Part shown: positions 4,341-64,000 of the stretch, piece after piece
Position numbering within the stretch: the first letter of the stretch is position 1
Layout of the letters: every line of letters starts with the position of its first letter
From: Eledone cirrhosa
Lineage: Eukaryota
Direction of reading: 5' to 3'
Assembly (NCBI GenBank): GCA_964016885.1
Contig: OZ024741.1
Span: forward strand, 99,448,001-99,512,000
Length of the DNA: 64,000 nt
Translations under genes and position numbers: made by a program
Notes under the pieces: model-generated
What the model was told of the DNA's origin: nothing
The model's input: only the letters and a program-made list of their open reading frames with translations
Databases searched by the model: none

Positions 4341-4497
4341 TGCACATATATATATATAATAATAATTGTTTCTACTTTTGGCACAAGGCCAGCAATTAAA
4401 TCAGTACATTACTGGTACTTTATTTTATCGACCCCGTAAGGATGAAAGGCAAAGTTAAATAATAATGATACTATTTATAGTTATGTATATACTATAC

Positions 4498-5195
4498 TAT
4501 AAACAACAATAAACAGGAAAAGTCAGTAATTTATTACTACCTTATTACCAGTAAGAGAAATAGCTCAATGTAAGAATATCAGGTGTTTTACAGAGCAGGA
4601 ATAACTAAAAACATTCAATACAAACATTAACTAAAATATAACTTAACATATGTAATGGATGGGAAATCAGTAACTTTCATATTCTACACACATACAAATT
4701 TGAACTCTACAGAAACTATCTTTGCATTACATCCTCCATAATAGGCTAACATATTCGCTTAAAGTGCTTGTATTTTATGTAATACCTTGCCATACAGTAT
4801 TCATATATACCTTTGCTTGTTTCCTTCTCATATATATGACTAATGCATGTGCATTCTCTACACTCTTGAATATGTACTTCATTCTCTTTAATTATTAGAC
4901 TATTCTCTTGTATTATCTGTCGCATGTATTCCACTCTGTGCTTTTAATTTTAATTTTAATTTTAATTATTGTACAATTCTCGTATAATATATGTCGCATC
5001 CATTCCACACTGTAAATACTAAACTGTTGTTCACAACATCAATATATATGTATCTATATGATTGTTCAGTTGAATAGGAGGTTAATTATATGTACAAACA
5101 TTGATAATGCTCCGATGATACCAAACTAAAGTTTGGAAGAAACAATTGTCAGCGATTAAATGATTTGAACATAACTTTGATACTTGTGTAATTTA
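4498..5195. mobile_element. Non-autonomous hammerhead-bearing element (homologous to 26050-27068)
   Basis: 4900-5195 matches 26675-26962. 4498-4600 is the reverse complement of 26963-27068. Carries the ribozyme motif at 5105-5158. Confidence 0.75.
5105..5158 (+). ncRNA. Minimal type-I hammerhead ribozyme motif (U4C core variant)
   Basis: taatGCT-CCGATGA-taCCAAAC taaa GTTTGGaa-GAAA-CAATTG-TC-AGCgatta: helix I, core, helix II hairpin, GAAA, palindromic helix III and a GUC cleavage triplet. Confidence 0.75.
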
Positions 5196-5664
5196 TATAT
5201 ATATATATGTGTGTGTGTGTGAAGCGTTTGGATGTAGAGTGGTGGTAGTGACTGTGGTGGTGGCGGTGTGAACGGTGGTGTTGGTAGTGGTTTTGAAAGT
5301 TGGGGCGTTAAGAAACGGGTTAAAGTTTGCTTTCAAAGATGAGAAATAGGGTGAAAAAATGAGAGGCGAAGAGCTGAATAAACGTCATGGGTCTTTCATC
5401 GGTTTCGATGATGAACATTCAGTTGTTTAATTCAATGAACGTCCGACTCGTGAACTAAAATGTGGTTGAGTATTCCATATACACGCATACCATCAACGAA
5501 AAATATGATACAGTAAACAACAACAACAAATATTAAATGCATTGCAGCACAAAATATCCAGTAGTAAAAAAAAAAGAAATAAATAAACAGTACACCGTAC
5601 GTGGCAATAAGAAAATGGGGAAAAAAAGAGGTAATTAAGCAACGAAAGAAAGGAAAAGAAGAAG

Positions 5665-14527: not shown

Positions 14528-14734
14528 TTGTTATCCAAGGGAAAGGCATAGCTCGATACAGCCTGGCACCGGTGCTGTTGCAACTGGGGGGGGGGGGTCA
14601 GTTGAGTGGACTGAAGTAACGTGAAATAAAATGTCTTCCTCGAGTACACATTGTGCCAGAAATCACATTCACAATCTTACGATCGTGAGTCCAACACTTT
14701 AATCAGTAGGCCAGGTGCTTTCATGTTTTTCTCT

Positions 14735-14848
14735 GCTCACAACATATAGGTGTTCTAAGTAGTCAACTGTATAAGTTCTATGTTCAACATAGCTTAACTT
14801 CGGTGATCATACGAGAGCCGGTGTTTTCAACGCGATATGTCCGTAAAT
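14735..14848 (-). pseudogene. 5S rRNA pseudogene
   Basis: The minus strand reads TACGGACATATCGCGTTGAAAACACCGGCTCTCGTATGATCACCGAAGTTAAGC..., matching the 5' half of metazoan 5S rRNA. The 3' half is heavily decayed. Confidence 0.85.
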
Positions 14849-19619: not shown

Positions 19620-20983
19620 ATGTGTGTGTGTGTATATATGAGAGAGAGAGAGAGAGAGAGGTTAAATCATTGAAGTTGAAACAAATTCCGTAGCATTTCT
19701 CAGTGAACAATTTTTAAGAAATAACACGAAGATGCCAGGAAAATGTAGGTTGACGGTGGCAACGAATCAAAAAATTTATGAACAAAAATAATGACATAAG
19801 AGCCAGCCAATGTCACGCTGACTATCCCAGAGAAATTACGTTAAAGGTACACGTGTTGTTTGTGGAATGCTCAGTTACTTACATGTCAATTTCAAGAGGA
19901 GGCTGTTTCGTTGATTGAACAAGTGGAACACTCATCGTCGAAGACGACGGAAGCCCTTTCCATCGGAATGACGTTGTACTAGTGATTTTGCTAATTAGTT
20001 TCTTATTCATCATCATCATCATCATCATCGCTTAACGTCTATCTTCCACGTGAACATGGGTTAGACGGGAGTTGTCCCAATTTGAGGCAAGGTTGGTCGG
20101 GTGACCATGTCTCGCTCGTAAAGTACTATCTGGCAGGCTTTCTGCGGCTGGATGCCCTCCCTAACACCAACCACGTTTACAGTGTGGACTGGGAACTTTT
20201 TATCGTGTTACCTACACGACCACATTACAGCGTGGACTGTGTGTGTGTTTTTGTTGTGACACCTACACGATCTCGATCTCGATCTCATTATTTCATTTGT
20301 GGATTGGCAGTATCGGTAGAGAGTCGGACGTCATGCTTTGACGCATAGAGTTACGGCCCTTTTCATTCTGAGTTCAAATCCCGGCGAGGTCAACTTTGCC
20401 TTTCATCCTTACGGGGTCGATAAAATAAAGTACCAGTAATGTACTGGGTAATTGCTGGCCTTGTGCCAAAAGTAGAAACAATTATCTCATTTATTTGGAC
20501 TGGATGTTGTGGTACCAACTTTACAGAGAAATGATATCCATAACAATCTATATAGTGAACTAAGTAGCCTAATAAATAGAATTGCTTTGAAACCCACAAA
20601 ACTCAGTGTGCTCATAATCATCGTTGGTCATATACAGTCTAAACAGTCATAATCATTGTACTAACTTATACTCACTACAACTTTTTATTTAGTACATGTA
20701 GTCATCGGTGCACTTGAATCTGTAACATAAAACTTACAAGGTGAATTAGAAAGGCCGGGGCTCTCTAGGAAAACAGGTACAAAAGAATGATATACATTCT
20801 CTAAATCTAATCTAGGAGTAAAAGGAACACTGGAAGCATTCCATGAATTCTCTACATAAAGTTTGATCTTGAAGAATCTTATATGTATCAAAGAAAGTGT
20901 ATTGTATATGTGTGAAAGAATGTATCTTCATAACCAGGATACAAAAGTACAAAATCTCATACATGTATACATACATACACACA

Positions 20984-21076
<93 letters not shown>

Positions 21077-21307
21077 TATATATATATACACGCATTATAT
21101 TATATATATATATATACAATATATTAAAAAATGGAAACTATATTTATAAAACCATATTTATTTCATTATACATATTTCAAGGGCCACCAAAGCAAAATAT
21201 AGGTTAGTTTTATAAATAAATATTGACATACCCTGAAAAAATGCAACCATTTTATATTTTATATTTTATATTTTGCTTGTTGTATCCCAACAAATTAAAT
21301 ATAACCT

Positions 21308-21399
<92 letters not shown>

Positions 21400-21560
21400 T
21401 TATTTATTAAAATAACAGATTAAAGTTTAAGCAAAGAATCGCTGCTTTCACCATTAACGGGATCTTCTGAAACTAAAAAAGTCAATCTGTGAACGCAGAA
21501 GTAAATATTTCAAAAAACGTTGCAGCCGAAGGAAGACAGGAAGACGATACTTTGGTTCGT

Positions 21561-21835
21561 GGAAACGTTCCCTGGCAAAGAACGGGGGAAAAAAGGAGAT
21601 AATACGTCATTATTTGGTGTAGTGAAAAGAATTACACGCGAAGACAAAACCACGTTTAGGGTATAAATGAAGTCGTAGACTAATATTCTATTAGGTGGTT
21701 CATGGAGACGTTCTCTGGCAATGAACGGAAAAACGAGGATAATACGTCATTATGAGGAGCAATGAGAACAATACACGCAAAGACAAAACCACGTAAATGG
21801 TATAACTGAAGTCGTAGACTAAAATTCTATTTAGG
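21561..21835. repeat. ~145-bp tandem duplication at the Penelope 3' end
   Basis: GGA(A/G)ACGTTC.CTGGCAA...GATAATACGTCATTAT...AAGACAAAACCACGT...GAAGTCGTAGACTAA occurs twice. Confidence 0.85.
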
Positions 21836-22610
21836 AAACCGAATGATTCTCGGCTTCAGGGTTAAGAATAAAGTAAATAAAATATAGAGGTAATGGAAAC
21901 TAAATATATACATACACACATCCATATACGTACATACACAAGCATACGCGAAAACACTCCCCATGGGTATGCAAATACAAGCACGTACACAAAAAAAACA
22001 AAAAAAACACGCACATACAGAACCCACGCAACGCCTGTACCGCATACATACGAACGTATACACCAAATACGTATAAAAATAAATAAATAAAAACATATAT
22101 ATATATACACATGTGTGTGTGTGTGTGTGTGTGTGCGTGTTTACATAATTAAATAAACGTATATAAATATACACACATAAATACGTATACAACGCGTGCG
22201 CACACACACCCATATGTAAAACACATATGTTCGCGGACGTACGTCAACCAAAACACAAAGTACACATATACACACCCCTACGAACCCGCATACTCACACA
22301 GACGCAAAACTCACGTATACACATAACCAAATGCATATGTACCAGTATATATAATATATACGCCAATGACATATACAAGCAAATATACGTACGAGAAAAT
22401 ATACGTACCTTCGCAAAACATACAGGTAATATATACTTACCTATACGAATAAGTAATGGTATTAACATAACATATACTTAGCTACCACATCAAGACGTAA
22501 AATATCCGCGTATAGTTCGTACTATCCGTAAGGGTATAATGTGGGGCTGTAATACAGGAAAGTTTTGTGCAATTTATGTTTACAAGCCGAAATTGCTTCA
22601 GATTTTTTGT

Positions 22611-23126
22611 TTAAGATGTGGTCTTTGGTGTAGAGTATTTCCAGGGCCTCAGCGGCGCAGAGGTCACATGGTCTTTTATTTCCGTTATACGATCTAGCCT
22701 AGCTAGGATCTCCCAGTGTAACTTATATTGGGTGTGGTTGTCTTTTAGACTCCAGATATAAGCTGAAAGTGACGTCATATTCCTTCTTAAAGGGTTAAGA
22801 AAAGAATGTGTATGCATGTAAAGACGCTGCTTGAATCTATTGGCGGTTAACCCTATGTGGGCCCTACGGGACGTGGGTGTTTCAACCTTACATTTGTAGA
22901 CAATGTTACTAGAGAGGCATTTCCCGGATAGGGGGCAGTCAACCCGATTCCTACAATTACATTTAGTACTAGCTACAGGGTTGCACGTGTTCCTACGGCT
23001 AGGTAATTTAGCTAAATTTGAAGCTGTGATGTTATGTACAAGGTTAGGAGTCGTAGAGTAAGAAATTTTAATGGTATTTCTATTAAAAATTTTACTATAT
23101 TTATGTGCTGGGGGTAAATGCTTCAT
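22611..23126 (-). pseudogene. Penelope GIY-YIG endonuclease domain
   Basis: KISYSTTPNL, Cys cluster CNCRNRVDCPLSGKC, VYKC...HIGLT, TSLSAYIWSLKD...WEIL. Confidence 0.88.
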
Positions 23127-23223
23127 AATAAGGGAGAGAAAGATCTAAGCTAAAGGTATGGCCACCTCCATATTATATGGTGGGTTATACCATATAATAC
23201 GTCGGGATCTATCTTTCCTAGGT

Positions 23224-24260
23224 CTATTCTGTATAAGCTACCTTATCGACAAATCCACTCCGAGCAAGAGCTTCATTGTAATATGTGGAATGGTCGTTGA
23301 AAATATGCTCGTTTGTAGATAGACGGGAATGCCTCAAAGAAACGTTTCTTACCAGGTTCTTGGTTATGCTGGCAGGATGGTTAGAATGCTTACTTATGTA
23401 ATTAAGCGTATCATTCGGCTTTCTATACGGGTAGTGCAAGCCATTCGACAAATCGAGGGTAACGTCGAGGTAATTAACGACCGAGAGGTTGGCCTCAACC
23501 TGTATAGAGAGGTTGAAGCCTTTAAAGAAGGCTGTGAGTTCTTTTCTGAACCTGTCGCAAGCACGGGGGCCGCACTTTGTCATGGTCAAAAGACCGTCAT
23601 CACGGTACAAACCACCGCCCACGTTGGGGAATTCTTCCTTGATAGAGAAAAGAAGGAAAAGGCCGATAAGATCAGTAACCTCCGCAGAATCGCTGGCGCC
23701 CATACTCACGTCGAATGGGGTACTATTAGATTTTTTAATCCAAATAGAGTCGTCGAAATTAATCACCGACTTACGGGCATTGAGGATGACATCAACTTCG
23801 AAATCCTTAACCACTGTTAGTGTTTTAGCAAAATTGATAGCTCTAAGGAGAAGTGGTAACGTGATGGAGGAGTAGTAATTACTGATGTCGAATTGAATAA
23901 AACGGCAATGTTCCTTGTTGCATATGCCGTTGAACCAATCAATCACCGCGAAAGAATTGTTCCACAGTGCAAGAGGGGCTAAACTTCTAATTTCAGGTAT
24001 AATCCTATCTAAAATCCTTTTACTAAGTCTACCTATATCGGACTTCGTAGCGTTAATAAGCCGAATAGAGGGGTTGTTCGGGAAATTGGATTTGTGATCC
24101 TTCAGCGTAAAGTGGGGCGAAATAGGGTCCAGAGGTTCGGTACGGTCCAGGATGTTGAGATCAGAGGTGATATTAAACCCAGCATCGTTGATTTCATTAA
24201 TGACGCTCCAATTAGTTTTACGGTAATCCTTAGTTACAGCATTATGTAGCAGTTGAGGGT
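23224..24260 (-). pseudogene. Penelope reverse transcriptase domain
   Basis: Open frame from ~24260 through the track ORF 23224-23946, with the YRDD catalytic motif. Confidence 0.9.
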
Positions 24261-24410
24261 ACTATATATACATATATATATACATATATATATTAATAAG
24301 AGGAATTCCAACTTTGTCTGATTTACTCGTTTTATTTACAATCCTTTAAAATATATATAATGGTATTATAATGAAATAGTATGATAGAATATTAAATTCT
24401 AAGTGTTAAT

Positions 24411-24449
24411 TGAACAAGTACTTTCATGCTTTCGCAATCTTCAGGTTCA
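24411..24449 (-). ncRNA. Minimal hammerhead ribozyme motif (mirror copy)
   Basis: Exact reverse-strand copy of 24532-24570, produced by the palindrome. Confidence 0.8.
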
Positions 24450-24531
24450 TGATATGTGGTGACAGTCGAGTTTGCAATTTTCAATTGCCATGACAGTTGA
24501 AAATTGCAAACTCGACTGTCACCACATATCA

Positions 24532-24570
24532 TGAACCTGAAGATTGCGAAAGCATGAAAGTACTTGTTCA
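24532..24570 (+). ncRNA. Minimal hammerhead ribozyme motif
   Basis: TGAAC-CTGAAGA-tTGC gaaa GCAt-GAAA-GTAC-TT-GTTCA: 5-bp helix I, GNRA-capped helix II, palindromic GTAC in helix III. Confidence 0.8.
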
Positions 24571-24742
24571 ATTAACACTTAGAATTTAATATTCTATCAT
24601 ACTATTTCATTATAATACCATTATATATATTTTAAAGGATTGTAAATAAAACGAGTAAATCAGACAAAGTTGGAATTCCTCTTAATAATATAATCTTCTA
24701 TACACAATCATACACACCCGTGTATATTTACCTATCTATATC

Positions 24743-24863
<121 letters not shown>

Positions 24864-25189
24864 AGGCGCATGGCTTAGAGCATTGGGCTTGTAATCGAAA
24901 GGTTGTGAGTTCAATTCTCGGACCGGGTGATGTGTTGTTTCCTTGAGCAAGACACTTTATTTTATGTTGCTCCAGTTTACTCAGCTGTAGAAATGAGTTG
25001 TGACGTCACTGGAGCCAAAATGTATCGGCCATTGTCTTTCCCTTGGACCTCATCGGTGGCGTGGAGAGGGGAGACTGGTATGCATGGGCGACTATCGGTC
25101 TTCCACAAACAACCTTGCTTGGACTTGTGCCTCGGAGGAAAATTTTCTAGGTGCAAATCCCATGGTCATTCGTGACCGAAGGGGGTCTT

Positions 25190-25279
<90 letters not shown>

Positions 25280-25548
25280 TCATTATATATATATACATAT
25301 ATACATACATATATATACAGACGCATTATATATACATACATATATACACACACGCATTATATATACATATATACACACACACGAATTATGTATATATATA
25401 TATATATATATACACCCATTATGTATGTATATATACACATACACCCATTATGTATGTATGTATATATACACACACACCCATTGTATATATATATATATAT
25501 ACACACACACACCCATTGTATATATATATATATATATACACACACACC

Positions 25549-25653
<105 letters not shown>

Positions 25654-26087
25654 TAAGACTGGCACTCCGTCGATTACGACAACAAGTGTTCCAGTTGATA
25701 CGATCACCGAAACAGTCTGCTCGTCAAATATACGTATAAGTGGCTGAGCATTCTTCAGACACAGGTTCCCTTAACGTAATTCTCGGGGAGATTCAGTGAC
25801 ACAGAATGTGACAAGGCTTGTCATTCGAATTACAGATACAACTCATTTTTGCCAGCAACGTGAAATAATAAATCTTGCTCAGGGACACAACGCGCCGCCT
25901 GGTCCTGGAATCGAACTCCTGATCTTATGATAATAATAGGCCCGATGTGATAGATAAGAACAAACAAATGCCACATGAACCATAAATCGCTTTACTCTTA
26001 ACATCGCCTGATGACTAAATGTGGGTTTGTTAATTCAAATCTCTCTCATATAAATTAGAAAATTATCAAAGTTGTGTTCAAATCATT

Positions 26088-26141
26088 TAATAGCTGACAA
26101 TCGTTTCTTCCAAACTTTCGTTTGGAATCATCGGAGCATTA
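26088..26141 (-). ncRNA. Minimal hammerhead ribozyme motif (U4C variant)
   Basis: taatGCT-CCGATGA-TTCCAAAC gaaa GTTTGGAA-GAAA-CGATTG-TC-AGCtatta. Confidence 0.75.
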
Positions 26142-26872
26142 TCAATGTTTGTACATATAATTAACCTCCTATTCAACTGAACAATCATATAGATACATAT
26201 ATATATTGATGTTGTGAGCAACAGTTTCGTATTTACAGGGTGTACTGGATGCGACATATATTATACGAGAATTGTACAATAATTCAAATTAAAATTAAAA
26301 GCACAGAGTGGAATACATGCAACAGATAATACAAGAGAACTAACTGTAACTAACTTAAAAAATTCAATATAAACGTTAACTAAAATATAATTCAACATAT
26401 GTAATGGAAAGGACTACAATAACTTTGATTTTCTCAACACACACAAATTCAAACACTATCAACATATTACATCCGCCATAAATTTTAATACATTAACATA
26501 TTTGCTTACCATACAGTATTTATTTATTTATCTATATATGCATAATACCTTTGCTTATTTCCTTCTCATATATATGACTAACACAGGTGCACTTTCTACA
26601 CGCTTGCATATGTACTGGTAATGTACTCTTTCTTTCTCAATACTTCTTTCTCAATGCCTCTTTAATTATTAGCCTATTCTCTTGTATTATCTGTTGTATG
26701 TATTCCACTCTGTGCTTTTAATTTTAATTTTAATTATTGTACAATTCTCGTAAAATATATGTCGCATCCAGTACACCTTGTAAATACGAAACTGTTGCTC
26801 ACAACATCAATATATATGTATCTATATGATTGTTCAATTGAATAAGAGGTTAATTATATGTACAAACATTGA

Positions 26873-26926
26873 TAATTCTCCGATGACTCCAAACTTTCGT
26901 TTGGAAGAAACGATTGTCAGATATTA
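26873..26926 (+). ncRNA. Minimal hammerhead ribozyme motif (U4C variant)
   Basis: taatTCT-CCGATGA-cTCCAAAC tttc GTTTGGAa-GAAA-CGATTG-TC-AGAtatta. Confidence 0.75.
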
Positions 26927-27096
26927 AATGATTTGAACACAACTTTGATAATTGTCTAATTTATTTTCCTGCTCTGTAAAACACCTGATGTTCTTACATT
27001 GAGCTATTTCTCTTACTGGTAATAAGGTAGTAGGAAATTACTGACCTTTCCTGTTTATAGTTGTTTATATATACACACACATACAGACATATATAC

Positions 27097-27183
<87 letters not shown>

Positions 27184-27276
27184 CGTATATATATATATAT
27201 TTATATACATACACACAGACATATATACGTATACATATATATATATACATGTGTATATATACATGTGTATACACAC

Positions 27277-27311
<35 letters not shown>

Positions 27312-27402
27312 CACACATATATATACGTATACATACACGCACACATTTATACGCACACGCACACATACGCACACACACGTATACACACGCACGCATACCC
27401 AC

Positions 27403-27435
<33 letters not shown>

Positions 27436-28069
27436 CATACATTACTGGACAAATAAAGAAAAATGTTCACAACGCATAAACATTCACATACCTATCTACA
27501 CGTATATTTATTTACCCTGTAGCCTTGACAGACAAATGTATATAAGTTACACAACTAGTACACGTACATACAAAATTTATATAAACAGATTGACAAGATT
27601 AGCAACCTACATAACTGAGTAGACATCTATATGTATTCATGCTATTGGATACAGGTACAAAAACGGAAATGCATTACACTCATTGCCCTCAACAGAAATA
27701 TCTACACGTACATTTATGTTCAGTCATAAAGAAATAGAGAGGTTACAAATGCACATGCACACATCATATATATAAATACACAAATTTGAAATGTAAAGTA
27801 TAGCTTTTTTAAGAAGGTGGAAAAGAGCCGATCATCAGTGCACCTGAGCACTGTACACAATAATTTCATAATTATTATTATTTTTAAATATAGGTCTTCT
27901 TGATCAATCAGACATAAGATTCAAATTAAGGAAATGTGAGATTGTGTTCCCTGACAATATGGTGCGTTACGTGTGTGTGTGTATGTATCAAAATATGTCG
28001 CAATTAATCTTTCCATTGGCGATACTATGTCGATCGCATCTTCTGGCAGGCGACGGCGAGATTTGAACC

Positions 28070-30430: not shown

Positions 30431-30513
30431 ATATATATATGTCTGTGTGTCCTGGGTTCAATCGGGGGTAACCATAGTAAGTAAGGTTCTCAATACATAG
30501 CAGAGTATAAATA

Positions 30514-30750
<237 letters not shown>

Positions 30751-32710: not shown

Positions 32711-32751
32711 AGCTAACAGTCTGTTTCACGCTGGTTGGCGATCATCAGAGC
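32711..32751 (-). ncRNA. Minimal hammerhead ribozyme motif
   Basis: GGCT-CTGATGA-tCGC caacca GCGt-GAAA-CAGaCTG-TT-AGCT. Confidence 0.8.
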
Positions 32752-32850
32752 CACGCACCCCCTGCTTCTGCCGAAAATTATAGAAGCTGGGTTCTTATAG
32801 AATTCTAGTAATAATCAGGAGCCGACTATACAGAGCGACCGCCGGTCCAA

Positions 32851-34832: not shown

Positions 34833-36167
34833 TCACCCATCTTTCATAAAACTTGCTGGGGTAGAGCACCTCTCTCTCTCCATTCTGATCCTTCTTCTAA
34901 AGTGGTACTTGAAAAAAAAGACCAGTTGTTGGCCGGAGAGATAGGTGTCTGACCTCAGCCCTTTCAACCTTGTCCACCATACGCTCATCCGCTCAGGTTC
35001 AAGGATCACGCGTCCATCCTGGTCCTTCAAAGACCGAATCGTGGACATGTTTCCACTTTTTGCCTCTGTCACTCGGGCCGAGCTAACAGCTTTGGCTCCC
35101 TCGTTACCCAGAGCACGTATTTTACTCCTGACAACGCAGCCCTCGTGTTTCGCATCAAAGAACTGGTCTAGGGCCGTTCTTGACGCCAGCATGCCGGCCA
35201 CGTTGCCACTCCTAATCGCCTCTTCTACTCTATTTGTTAATTCCCTTTCAGTTCTATTCCTATCTGATGCTAATTCCTGACTAAAACCTATCGATTCTAT
35301 TCTAATTTCTCTCTTGAGAGAGCCCCACCACCTGTTGTTGACAATTGCCCCCGTCAAACGCTGCTTAACTAGTGTGCTAATCCGCTTACTGTAAGCTTTG
35401 TTTGTCGGTAAAGACAAGTTTAGCTTCCAGTAACCGGGTCCCTGTCTATGAGTTCTATCAAGGTTGACCACTCCGGTCAACAACTTGTGATCCGAATAGT
35501 CAACCATGAACATTCGTGGACAGCTTAATATGTCCCTATCCTTATTTCTAACTAGGAACCTATCTAGGTACGACCTGGATGTTCCGCTGTGATTACTCCA
35601 CGTCCACCGTGGCACAGTCGGAAAATCCAGTCGATATCTATCGGCCAGATCAAATCGTCCGATTAATCGTTTGAGGCTGTTACAGCCCCCTCTATCGGGA
35701 CATGCCCCTATATAGTCCCAACGTGCATCCAGGATACCATTCCAGTCCCCCACTAAAAGCAAGGCGCGAGACGTTCCCAGGAAATTCTCCAGGCGTCGGA
35801 AGAAGTCCGGTCGCGGTGTCCCCGATGGGGCATACGCTGCCACCAGCCTGAAAGCTCCACCTTCACCACTGCCGACGTCTAAAACCACCAGTCGACCCTC
35901 CGGGTCCAGGTGTACCTTCTGTGTGGCAAGACCCAGGTATTTTCGCAGCAGAACGACAACCCCACCCCCACCCCTCGGCTGACAGAGCGATGCGTAGATC
36001 TCAAAGTCGTCGAAGATGGGGGCCAGTTGGCGCTCGCTGCTGATCCTGGACTCGCAAATAACCATTACATCCACTCTGTGCGACCTGAGGTCATTTAAGA
36101 GTTTGCCCTGTTTTCAGGACATCCCCAAGCCGCGTGCATTCACACATCCAACTCTTATATTGGCCAT
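34833..36167 (-). pseudogene. LINE ORF2: APE-type endonuclease plus C-terminal tail, RT missing
   Basis: ATG at 36167 with an in-frame TGA at 36116; motifs AAYAP, LVGDWN, TWSN, SYLDRF, SDHK, GPGYWKLN. Confidence 0.9.
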
Positions 36168-41014: not shown

Positions 41015-41049
<35 letters not shown>

Positions 41050-41051
<2 letters not shown>

Positions 41052-41235
41052 GTGTGTGAATGAAGTATTTCCGTCGGAAAGGTACAGGAAAAAAGAGTGC
41101 TCTATGTAGGCTACAGAGCTTATTAGTTATGTAATAAACAACATAAGATAATTATTTCATTTACCACTGGTTTCTTGAAGGCAGATGTTATGTCTTTCTT
41201 CAGTCATCAGAATGAATAAATAACATGGTGATTAT
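41050..41235. mobile_element. Hammerhead-bearing element (rearranged copy of 45370-45650)
   Basis: 41132-41232 matches 45375-45478 directly; 41055-41125 is the reverse complement of 45572-45643. (TA)n on both sides. Confidence 0.8.
41156..41216 (-). ncRNA. Hammerhead ribozyme motif
   Basis: TTCATT-CTGATGA-cTGAAG...CTTCAa-GAAA-CCAgTGG-TA-AATGAA. Confidence 0.8.
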
Positions 41236-41559
41236 ATATATATAATCCTTCACCATACATTCACTCTGTTGTAGCTATAAATTCTCTTGTCTACGACTCT
41301 TTGGACACCCACCACTCACGCACGCACACACACACGCACCCATCAAGTTTCAGATGTTCAAGCAATGCATCACCCGCAGAAATCTCACAAGTCTGGGAGC
41401 AATTCAACTGTCATAGAAACTCCCCTCACTCAATCCCCAACCCAAACCTCATACCCAATCTCATCTCTACAAATGATCTCATTAAAAAACCTTTCGCGCT
41501 AATTTAGCTGCCCGTAACTCAGAAGAATGGAAAATTACCCAAATACCTGGCTTTAATTG

Positions 41560-45345: not shown

Positions 45346-45398
45346 CATAACAAGTATATATATATATAGTTATATAATAAACAACATAAGATAATTAT

Positions 45399-45459
45399 TT
45401 CATTTACCAATGGTTTCTTGAAAGCAGATGCTAGATCTGTTTTCAATCGTCAGAATGAA
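45399..45459 (-). ncRNA. Hammerhead ribozyme motif
   Basis: TTCATT-CTGACGA-TTGAAA aCAGAT ctagc ATCTGc TTTCAA-GAAA-CCAtTGG-TA-AATGAA. Confidence 0.82.
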
Positions 45460-45643
45460 TTAAAAAAAACATGGTGTTTTTATTAAATATGGATTTGTAA
45501 ACAAAATTTAAGAAATATGAAAGTGAGGCTGAGAAAAAAACGGGCGAAAAAGGAGAGGGGGAAAAGAATAATAATAAGCTCTGTAGCCTACATAGAGCAC
45601 TCTTTATACCTGTACCTTTCCGACGGAAATACTTCATTCACAC

Positions 45644-45691
<48 letters not shown>

Positions 45692-60135: not shown

Positions 60136-60191
60136 TAAATATGTAGAAAACAATTATTATTATTGTTATAATAAAGAAAGAATTATTGTTA

Positions 60192-60386
60192 TTATTTTGC
60201 GAAGGTGTTAAATTTCAGCATACCATTGAAATTTTTAACACCTTCGCAAAATAATTGTTTCTACTTTAGGCACAAGGCCAGCAATTACCCAGTAAAGTAC
60301 CAATAATGCACTGGGTAATTGCTGGCCTTGTGCCTAAAGTAGAAACAATTATTTTGCGAATGTGTTAAATTTCAATGGTATGCTGA
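60192..60386. repeat. Nested fold-back built from SINE A tails
   Basis: 60215-60292 is nearly the reverse complement of 60310-60386, and 60192-60212 pairs with 60232-60254. Confidence 0.85.
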
Positions 60387-61552: not shown

Positions 61553-63139
61553 GACTGAAGAGGAATAACGTGAAAGAGTAGACGGGGGAGGATAAGGAAG
61601 ACGTGTATCATCATCATCGTCATCATATCTTCCAGTGCTCAGCAATGGCTTTATAAATCGTGTGATCTGAATAGGTCATTAATAATAATGTTCGATACGC
61701 GACATATGACTAAGCAGTTACTTATCAGATAAGAAAGTTTGTGTAGTGTTACATGCCATGAGAATGGGTTTACCATATCGTATTTTTTGTGGGGGCTCTA
61801 TGAATGTTATCAACGTACAACTTGATGTTGTATGTTAAATATGTTGCGGATGACGTTATGTCTCTCTATGTTGTAAATCCAGACATGTCGTCCTTGGGTT
61901 TTCTTTGGTTAGAATATGAACGATATTCAGATTAAACACAATTTATATACTGTAGACAATAACACCTAGACAATAACACCTAGACTTCACATAAACAAGC
62001 GATGGCTTCCATCGACAAATGACAAACGAGTAAACACCAAAAAGGTTCTCTGTATGTATGGCGGGTGCGTATTTATTTTTCATGTCAAGGACAATCTATT
62101 TTGTTTTGGGATTTTTTAATCTTTTTCATGTAAAACAAAAATGCATTCGTTTAACCTCAGACAAATACATTTCCGGGTAGTTACATGGTGAACTGTATAT
62201 TGAAAATTAGTATAACAGTTTTTGTGAGCTCATAAGTGACTGAAATCACCATTCCGCGATGTAATTATTCCAGTTTCGATCAAAGAACTCACCAAGCAAA
62301 TAAAAACGCCAAGTGTCCTTAGCTCCTACTAAAGTTGTAGTGAATCCGTCCTGACACACAGCGTGCCTTGGGAATGTTGTGAAGCTCATCCCTCTCCATG
62401 TCGTAACGTAGCCGATTTATTCTATAAAAAGAGGAAGAATCGACCTCAGTACTAAATTAGTACTTTATTTATCAAACCCGAAAAGAAGGAAAGGCAAAGT
62501 AAACCTCGTCGTGATTTCCACTCAGTGTTGTGAGCCGAACAAATGCCGAAGCATTTTTAATCCGATGCTCTTACAACTACCAATTCGCCGCCAAGCCAAT
62601 CACGTACATACTCCGAAATAATGGTTTCTGATTTAGGCACAAGCCCAACAATATTGGGTGGGGGTGGGGGAGTCGATTAAATTGACTCCAGTGGGTTACT
62701 GGTACTTTATTTTATCGACCTCGTAAGGGTGAAATCCAAAGCTAACCTAGGCGGAATTTGAACTCAGAACGTAAAGGACCGTAACTCAATGCTACAAAGC
62801 ATGGCGTCCAACTCTCTACTGAAATAATATAATATAATCAAATTTACATCACCAGTTGAAAAAATATCAGATGTGTGTGTATAGATTATATACAATCCTT
62901 AGTGCAAGTAACCTTTATATACAACGAGTCAACGAAAGACCACCTAAGTAGTCACTCGATCTAATATAAATAGCAACTAAATTTCCCTCATATTACACTA
63001 AATAATGTAGTTCTAGATGTACTATGTCTGAAAAAAAGGCGGATTTATCTTGACTTGACTTGTGGTTGACTATAGGCTTCTTGCTTTCATTAATATAGGT
63101 TGAATTGGAGTTAACATAGCCGATAAAACCCATTTCAGA

Positions 63140-64000
63140 AGAAATGACAATACTGTCGCTGTTATTACCCAGTGAGTGTCCTAACTATTCAACAAGTCAC
63201 ATCTCAATAAAATTGGCAATACTATCGCTGTTATTACCCCGTGGATGTCCTAAATATCCAATAAGTTACATCTCAGTAGACATGACAATGCTATCGCTGT
63301 TATTACCCCCGTGGGTGTCCTAAATATACAATAAGACACATCTCAGTAGACATGACAATACTATCGCTGTTATTACCCCGTGGATGTCCTAAATATCCAA
63401 TAAGACACATCTCAGTAGACATGACAATACTATCGCTGTTATTACCCCGTGGGTGTCCTAAATATCTAATAAGATATATCTCAGTAGACATGACAATACT
63501 ATCGCTGTTATTATCCCGTGGGTGTCCTAAATATCCAATAAGACTCATCTCAGTAGACATGACAATACTATCGCTGTTATTACGCCGTGGATGTCCTAAA
63601 TACCCAATAAGACACATCTCAGTAGACATGACAATACTATCGCTGTTATTACCCCGTGGATGTCCTAAATATCCAATAAGACACATCTCAGTAGACATGA
63701 CAATACTATCGCTGTTATTACCCCGTGGGTGTCCTAAATATCCAATAAGATACATCTCAGTAGACATGACAATACTATCGCTGTTATTACCCCGTGGGTG
63801 TCCTAAATATCCAATAAGACACATCTCAGTAGACATGACAATACTATCGCTGTTATTACCCCGTGGATGTCCTAAATATCCACTAAGACACATCTCAGTA
63901 GACATGACAATACTATCGCTGTTATTACCCCCGTGGATGTCCTAAATATCCACTAAGACACATCTCAGTAGACATGACAATACTATCGCTGTTATTACCC
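63140..64000. repeat. 69-bp tandem repeat (minisatellite), continues past the window end
   Basis: Unit CATGACAATACTATCGCTGTTATTACCCCGTGGRTGTCCTAAATATCCAATAAGACACATCTCAGTAGA. About 10-11 well-conserved copies plus two degenerate copies at the left edge. Confidence 0.97.

Follow-up and report, generated by a model that had tools for sequence, protein, structure and literature searches.

The window, meaning the whole 64-kb stretch of Eledone cirrhosa DNA that was analyzed, contains a loopless palindrome with a hammerhead ribozyme on each strand, next to a truncated open reading frame (ORF) of a Penelope-like element (PLE); the features of this locus are listed in Table 1. The palindrome is centered between positions 24490 and 24491 with a loop of 0 nt and covers 24289-24692, a total of 404 bp of which 98.5% are paired. 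This extent is slightly wider than the 24291..24690 given by the initial annotation, which had correctly described a loopless palindrome, arms differing at three positions and a truncated Penelope RT ~30 bp away: there are exactly three mismatched pairs (24488/24493, 24485/24496 and 24296/24685), the RT frame starts at 24261, and the (TA)-rich spacer measures 26-32 nt. Two of the three mismatches fall within the innermost 6 of the 202 pairs (p ~0.003), the third marks the start of the TA-rich flank, and the arm cores (24297-24484 and 24497-24684) are 100% alike over 188 bp in a row. Because two mismatches lie at the center and the third at the flank, the arms are best read as exact copies that meet at an imperfect 12-nt center. 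Such identity means either a young event or later homogenization. There is a weak hint that the right-arm version of the center, the only one that contains the 10-bp hairpin of Table 1, is the native sequence.

Table 1. Positions and strands of the features of the palindrome and of the neighboring element.
Feature	Positions	Strand	Remarks
Core of the left arm, identical to that of the right (PLE-type 3' end pointing outward; minus-strand sense)	24297..24484	-	AT-rich match continues to 24289 past one mismatch
Loopless center, 12-nt imperfect palindrome with two of the three mismatches; putative junction of two 5'-truncated ends	24485..24496	.	
Core of the right arm, identical to that of the left (plus-strand sense)	24497..24684	+	AT-rich match continues to 24692
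(TA)-rich microsatellite remnant between palindrome and RT; putative shared target	24263..24294	.	
About 40 nt of unmirrored sequence, then (TA)n: one-sided PLE tail or host flank	24693..24735	+	Lacks the tail hairpin motif of other families
10-bp hairpin, only in the right-arm version of the center	24491..24521	+	Shuffles folding as well: 0/200
Minimal type I hammerhead	24532..24570	+	Cut after 24565, score 10.6
Identical hammerhead, opposite strand	24449-24411	-	Cut after 24416, score 10.6
Neighboring Hydra-clade PLE ORF, RT then GIY-YIG-type endonuclease	22523..24261	-	~130 N-terminal residues missing; frameshifts near 23225 and 22698, plus stops
Degenerate hammerhead, U4 to A	21424..21474	-	33 nt before (TA)n, 1.1 kb past the ORF stop; 0.05 such matches per shuffled window

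Hammerheads were identified by a descriptor scan of both strands with shuffled windows as the control, in which scores of at least 7 occurred in 0 of 30 windows and scores of at least 9 in 0 of 60. The scan yields a full type I parse on each strand, as had been proposed; the scores are far above chance, and the two ribozymes point outward. Each comprises a 5-bp helix I, the core CUGAAGA followed by one U, a 3-bp helix II with a GAAA loop, a U followed by GAA, and a palindromic helix III, AGUACU (AGU/ACU), with a CUU cleavage triplet and therefore U at the cut site. The CUGANGA and GAAA boxes, helices I and II and the U-H cut site of the minimal type I class are thus all present in the arm. The ribozyme lies on the sense strand within ~200 nt of the 3' end, the region in which PLE hammerheads are known to sit, the arms stopping 119-127 nt past the cut site, compared with 113-150 nt for the tail-bearing ends of other families. 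Judged by its sequence, the arm hammerhead is a minimal, PLE-type motif. The lowest-energy fold of the isolated 39-mer contains helices I and II, yet its stability equals that of shuffled sequences (z 0.43). Rfam returned no hammerhead, either at the gathering level on the whole 64-kb window or at E values up to 10 on 20500-28000, and the Rfam miRNA matches in the latter interval were discarded as hairpin and microsatellite noise. The GAAA loop of helix II was also considered as the second core box and rejected in favor of the full descriptor parse.

RNA read through the entire palindrome is predicted to form a ~200-bp hairpin (-317 kcal/mol) and to leave the hammerhead helices a probability of 0, in line with the initial proposal that such a transcript would be double-stranded RNA (dsRNA) burying the ribozyme. 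The companion proposal, that a single-arm transcript could fold the ribozyme, is not supported, since in the 202-nt single arm helix I reaches a probability of at most 0.08 and helix III needs a partner copy; of the on/off switch that the two would have made, the buried state has support and the folded state has none. As the short helix III is a 6-nt palindrome able to dimerize, it cannot close without a second sense copy, and since each strand contains one sense copy, pairing is possible only in trans. The double-hammerhead dimer is calculated at -13.8 kcal/mol against -4.2 per monomer, and lies 2.6 above the best dimer fold. U is the weakest choice at the cut site for hammerhead cleavage. 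Any cleavage would depend on the pairing of two sense copies in trans and is expected to be weak. The palindrome most likely has no function: it is likely an inert relic, although transcription, if it occurs, may produce dsRNA, the predicted read-through hairpin being a probable source of small RNAs or of editing directed against its own family.

Among longer proteins, 46 are related to the neighboring ORF, with identities of 36-57%. The ORF retains a CxCX5C linker (P0002), with CxxC (CDLC) and CxH (CKH) in the next frame. Its endonuclease is C-terminal, and the Naiad clade was ruled out on this ground. The Hydra clade is characterized, in the available sections of its description (PMC8557442), by insertion in (TA)n, C-terminal endonuclease motifs, and RWK and DKT motifs. 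Among the 46 relatives, RW[KR] is present in 31 and DK[TS] in 39, the neighbor itself having lost both by 5' truncation, and (TA)n adjoins its truncated 5' end and is also present past its candidate 3' end. Pfam gave no match for the RT or endonuclease pieces, so the clade assignment rests on homologues and motifs. From these sequence features, the neighbor appears to be a 5'-truncated Hydra-clade PLE of another family than the arms, and the earlier recognition of a Penelope-like element is borne out by the relatives and the endonuclease motifs. Compared by eye with Hydra-1_Obim (PMC8557442, parts available), it represents a different family; the Hydra-1_Obim hammerhead likewise differs in sequence from that of the arm. 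No intact hammerhead was found ~840-1000 nt after the RT match, the position used in seven of the 14 related loci presented below. The degenerate hammerhead at 21424-21474 may be the 3' end of the neighbor or of another PLE; it has the AG/CU helix III start and U17 in common with the arm hammerhead, and sequence homology between the two is absent. A direct repeat of 140 bp (83%) lies at 21553-21831, downstream of the ORF.

The arm was compared with the neighbor's 3' region by blastn, which gave nothing better than E 1.9, and with its downstream 1.1 kb by local alignment, where the score of 28 was reached by 26 of 300 shuffles. The identity with the element's 3' end that would characterize a 5' terminal repeat of the adjacent element is therefore absent, the arm has no homology to the rest of that element either, and the initial statement that the arm lacks homology to that end holds. 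The related suggestion of a separate fold-back family is upheld as far as separation from the neighbor is concerned; the arms, however, look like PLE 3' ends, and head-to-head joining is a PLE hallmark. A second copy of the arm was not found in the 64-kb window, in the prokaryotic genome contigs or in the 14 loci near RT relatives, so no PLE ORF is tied to the arm family. A hammerhead-specific pattern likewise had no match in the prokaryotic genome contigs, and alignments of the arm with four other hammerhead ends of the window did not rise above shuffles. Four short arm words are absent from the Craig 2021 supplement, in which line breaks could hide a match, and the arm marks a PLE end family not found in the one curated set checked. 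The palindrome probably lies close to the RT because both target (TA)n; within such a tract, being next to an RT does not show that a sequence is part of that element.

The head-to-head architecture recurs in the window and elsewhere. Two further structures of other families were found in the window: at 26050-26964, inverted arms of 290 bp, 94.5% alike, carry hammerheads that point outward, with a tail of 100 nt on one of the two sides, and at 30506-30646 an older, small head-to-head palindrome (89%) retains one intact hammerhead and another with a core change. A search based on the RT aligned with 13 relatives led to 14 loci (L001-L014) in prokaryotic genome records; their content (Hydra-type PLE DNA with (TA)n and hammerheads) makes animal host contamination of prokaryotic assemblies the most likely source. 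Inverted arms with a hammerhead on each strand are present in 3 of the 14 loci, all three from one assembly. One of these structures, L003:5980-6196, resembles the palindrome most closely: it stands alone, spans 217 bp around a 1-nt middle, has central mismatches and a hammerhead per strand, shows (TA)n at one of its ends and a tail at the opposite one, and adjoins the end of an unrelated Hydra-type element. In L003, L008 and L013, several hammerhead families are packed between short (TA)n runs. None of 10 longer inverted junctions inspected contains a palindrome better than a few base pairs, which speaks against a palindromic junction as the general rule.

Other hammerhead-bearing ends were also recorded. 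A second PLE-end family occurs in the window at 26050-27064, with its tail on the right, and at 4493-5198, with the tail inverted at the 5' end; all three of its hammerhead copies have C in place of U4. A third family, at 41019-41237 and 45367-45678 (hammerhead scores 13.1 and 14.1), has a direct tail in one copy, whereas the other copy carries the tail inverted at its 5' end, and a lone Hydra-type hammerhead (score 9.2) is located at 32711-32752 on the minus strand. In the tail-bearing ends of many unrelated hammerhead families, a GCTC...GAGC pair, spaced by 8-30 nt and likely to form a hairpin, is located 40-61 nt past the cut site; its sites are 26918 (plus strand), 41162 (minus strand), 4493-4601 and 45568-45678 in the window, together with sites in L002, L003, L005, L007, L008, L009 and L011. 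The motif is found in 12 of 35 ends against 0.2 expected, a count in which copies are not independent and one is a neighbor's tail, and the pair is a candidate for a conserved signal for the start of reverse transcription. The end of a common dispersed repeat (60191-60386) also forms a fold-back, at 60215-60386, without a hammerhead.

Head-to-head PLE ends have been described previously (Arkhipova 2013; Cervera 2014; Craig 2021), and the joining of ends in this manner is a known by-product of PLE insertion that is apparently common. In the available text of one account (PMC3846280), the typical Penelope layout consists of an inverted repeat, a direct repeat and the ORF, with an optional tail, and self-priming is proposed; the same text describes the head-to-head junction at a short palindrome. 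In the case of Adineta vaga Pen2/Pen2a/Pen3a, it reports inverted pseudo-LTRs of ~200 bp, palindromes of 15-38 bp at the head-to-head junctions and AT-rich simple-repeat targets. The palindrome studied here matches in that its ~200-bp inverted ends meet head-to-head at a short palindrome in an AT-rich target; unlike those elements, it is followed by no cognate ORF and stands alone beside another family. The ~40 unmirrored nt on its right, either a tail or host flank, lack the tail motif. The available sections of PMC8557442 further contain Penelope-13_HM, which has an inverted 5'-truncated copy and a hammerhead listed on both strands. In the Hydra families of its File S2, as far as available, a by-eye count gives U/U flanking helix II in 14 of 25 and U at the cut site in 10 of 25, as in the arm, whereas helix III starts with AC and has a 1-3 nt loop in 25 of 25; the arm starts with AG and is loopless, so that its core flanks and TA-rich flank fit the Hydra type and its helix III fits 0 of the 25. 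Minimal PLE hammerheads, according to the parts available of PMC4209133, need to dimerize, cleave weakly, and are sometimes paired 100-700 bp apart on opposite strands. The arm resembles them in its type I form, in the palindromic helix III that needs a dimer and in the extra base before helix II, and differs in that its helix II is short (3 bp) with a closing U-A where the common form has G-C. The available portion of the O. vulgaris repeat paper (PMC13282606) does not mention hammerheads or palindromes.

With the geometry, hammerheads, lack of homology to the neighbor and recurrent architecture observed above, the palindrome is read here, with a probability of roughly three in four, as a small recent insertion made by a PLE enzyme: two ~200-nt 5'-truncated 3' ends joined head-to-head in a TA-rich target, of a family and in an event separate from the Hydra-clade neighbor, within the same (TA)n tract. 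In the proposed mechanism, a PLE enzyme would cut TA-rich DNA and copy the last ~200 nt of its RNA twice, both copies breaking off at the 5' side ~40 nt before the hammerhead and turning their 3' ends toward the TA-rich target. In vitro work, in the sections accessible (PMC11167929), shows that a PLE protein cuts and extends both target strands, that two initiation sites explain the tail, and that the PLE hammerhead needs protein and is dispensable for insertion. For the joining step there is about an even chance that the same RNA end served as template for cDNA primed by both cut strands, and that these two cDNAs, having identical 3' ends, annealed there through a short self-complementary sequence. 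Since identical cDNA ends can anneal only at a self-complementary stretch, this route would give a mismatched center and perfect arms. More tentatively, one strand could have folded back at a short self-complementary stretch and primed itself, which would leave the same center. RNA editing was considered as the source of the two A/G differences at the center and dropped, as a pair of transitions is not unusual and there is no support for the idea. On the reading favored here, the palindrome is a young and clean case of a PLE by-product that is already known; minimal loopless pairs of this kind record the point at which two cDNA ends were joined, and their centers, collected genome-wide, could separate two-strand annealing from fold-back self-priming.

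An alternative, which we consider improbable, is that the palindrome represents the inverted and direct 5' terminal repeats of the adjacent Hydra element, generated in the same event, the matching 3' repeat having been lost or replaced. The order and strand do fit the published succession of inverted repeat, direct repeat and ORF (PMC3846280, available text), the spacer is only 26-32 nt, and the neighbor has no intact hammerhead ~840-1000 nt after its RT match, in contrast to seven of the 14 loci. The arm, however, lacks homology to the neighbor's downstream 1.1 kb, a (TA)n run separates the two, and the ORF is truncated and decayed whereas the arms are identical; the neighbor also has a candidate hammerhead of its own at 21424-21474, and nests of mixed families are common.

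We give similarly low odds to the whole 400-bp palindrome being mobile itself, as a MITE-like fold-back DNA element with a captured hammerhead or as a non-autonomous palindromic retroelement copied by PLE enzymes. Its inverted arms are perfect, a TA target duplication could hide in (TA)n, and the tail motif seen in other families is missing from the arm; against this, no second copy occurs in the window, the prokaryotic contigs or the 14 loci, and the other inverted structures of the window vary in spacer and truncation point, as one-off products would. Animal non-LTR retrozymes, reported as non-autonomous PLE derivatives (bioRxiv 10.64898/2026.07.22.740005, in the portion available), share with the palindrome a non-coding, PLE-derived nature and a type I hammerhead, which favors a mobile unit. 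The same portion, however, describes them as direct tandem repeats with two sense ribozymes, while the two arms here are inverted and each strand contains a single sense ribozyme, and the direct tandem repeats with at least two sense hammerheads that define a retrozyme are absent from the palindrome. Even more doubtful is the specific form in which the whole loopless palindrome would be a multicopy hairpin retrozyme, copied intact by PLE enzymes as a non-autonomous unit; a transcript of either strand would then be the same ~200-bp hairpin, in which the hammerhead would stay off until the RNA was unwound or paired in trans, and would feed small RNAs against the parent family.

It is very unlikely that the locus began as the insertion of one PLE end, which fold-back repair at the DNA level then mirrored at a quasi-palindrome together with its flank. 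The arm has a (TA)4 run 56 nt past the cut site, where many other families stop, so this run could be the old target and the outer 60 nt of the arm could be mirrored flank, and the window has a hammerhead-free fold-back of another repeat at 60215-60386. A short TA run is, however, presumably unremarkable in such AT-rich sequence, the total distance to the arm end fits tail-bearing PLE ends, and head-to-head junctions are a described PLE product (PMC3846280, available text). Least probable of all is a fold-back artefact of the library or of the assembly: 188 bp of the arms are identical, and tandem and inverted PLE structures are known to trouble assemblies (PMC8557442, sections available), but the mirror ends at a plausible element end, the two flanks differ and each is unique, the center is asymmetric, the older inverted pairs of the window have diverged (94.5% and 89%) as artefacts would not, and the same form is found in another assembly, all of which indicates that the palindrome is real.

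Further features were noted in the window. An endonuclease/exonuclease/phosphatase domain (Pfam PF03372, E 3e-11) is encoded at 34833-36113 on the minus strand, probably within a decayed LINE that extends to ~33800. A degenerate 5S rRNA-like sequence (47.8 bits) lies at 14734-14848 on the minus strand, and a tandem repeat array with a 69-bp unit occupies 63032-64000.
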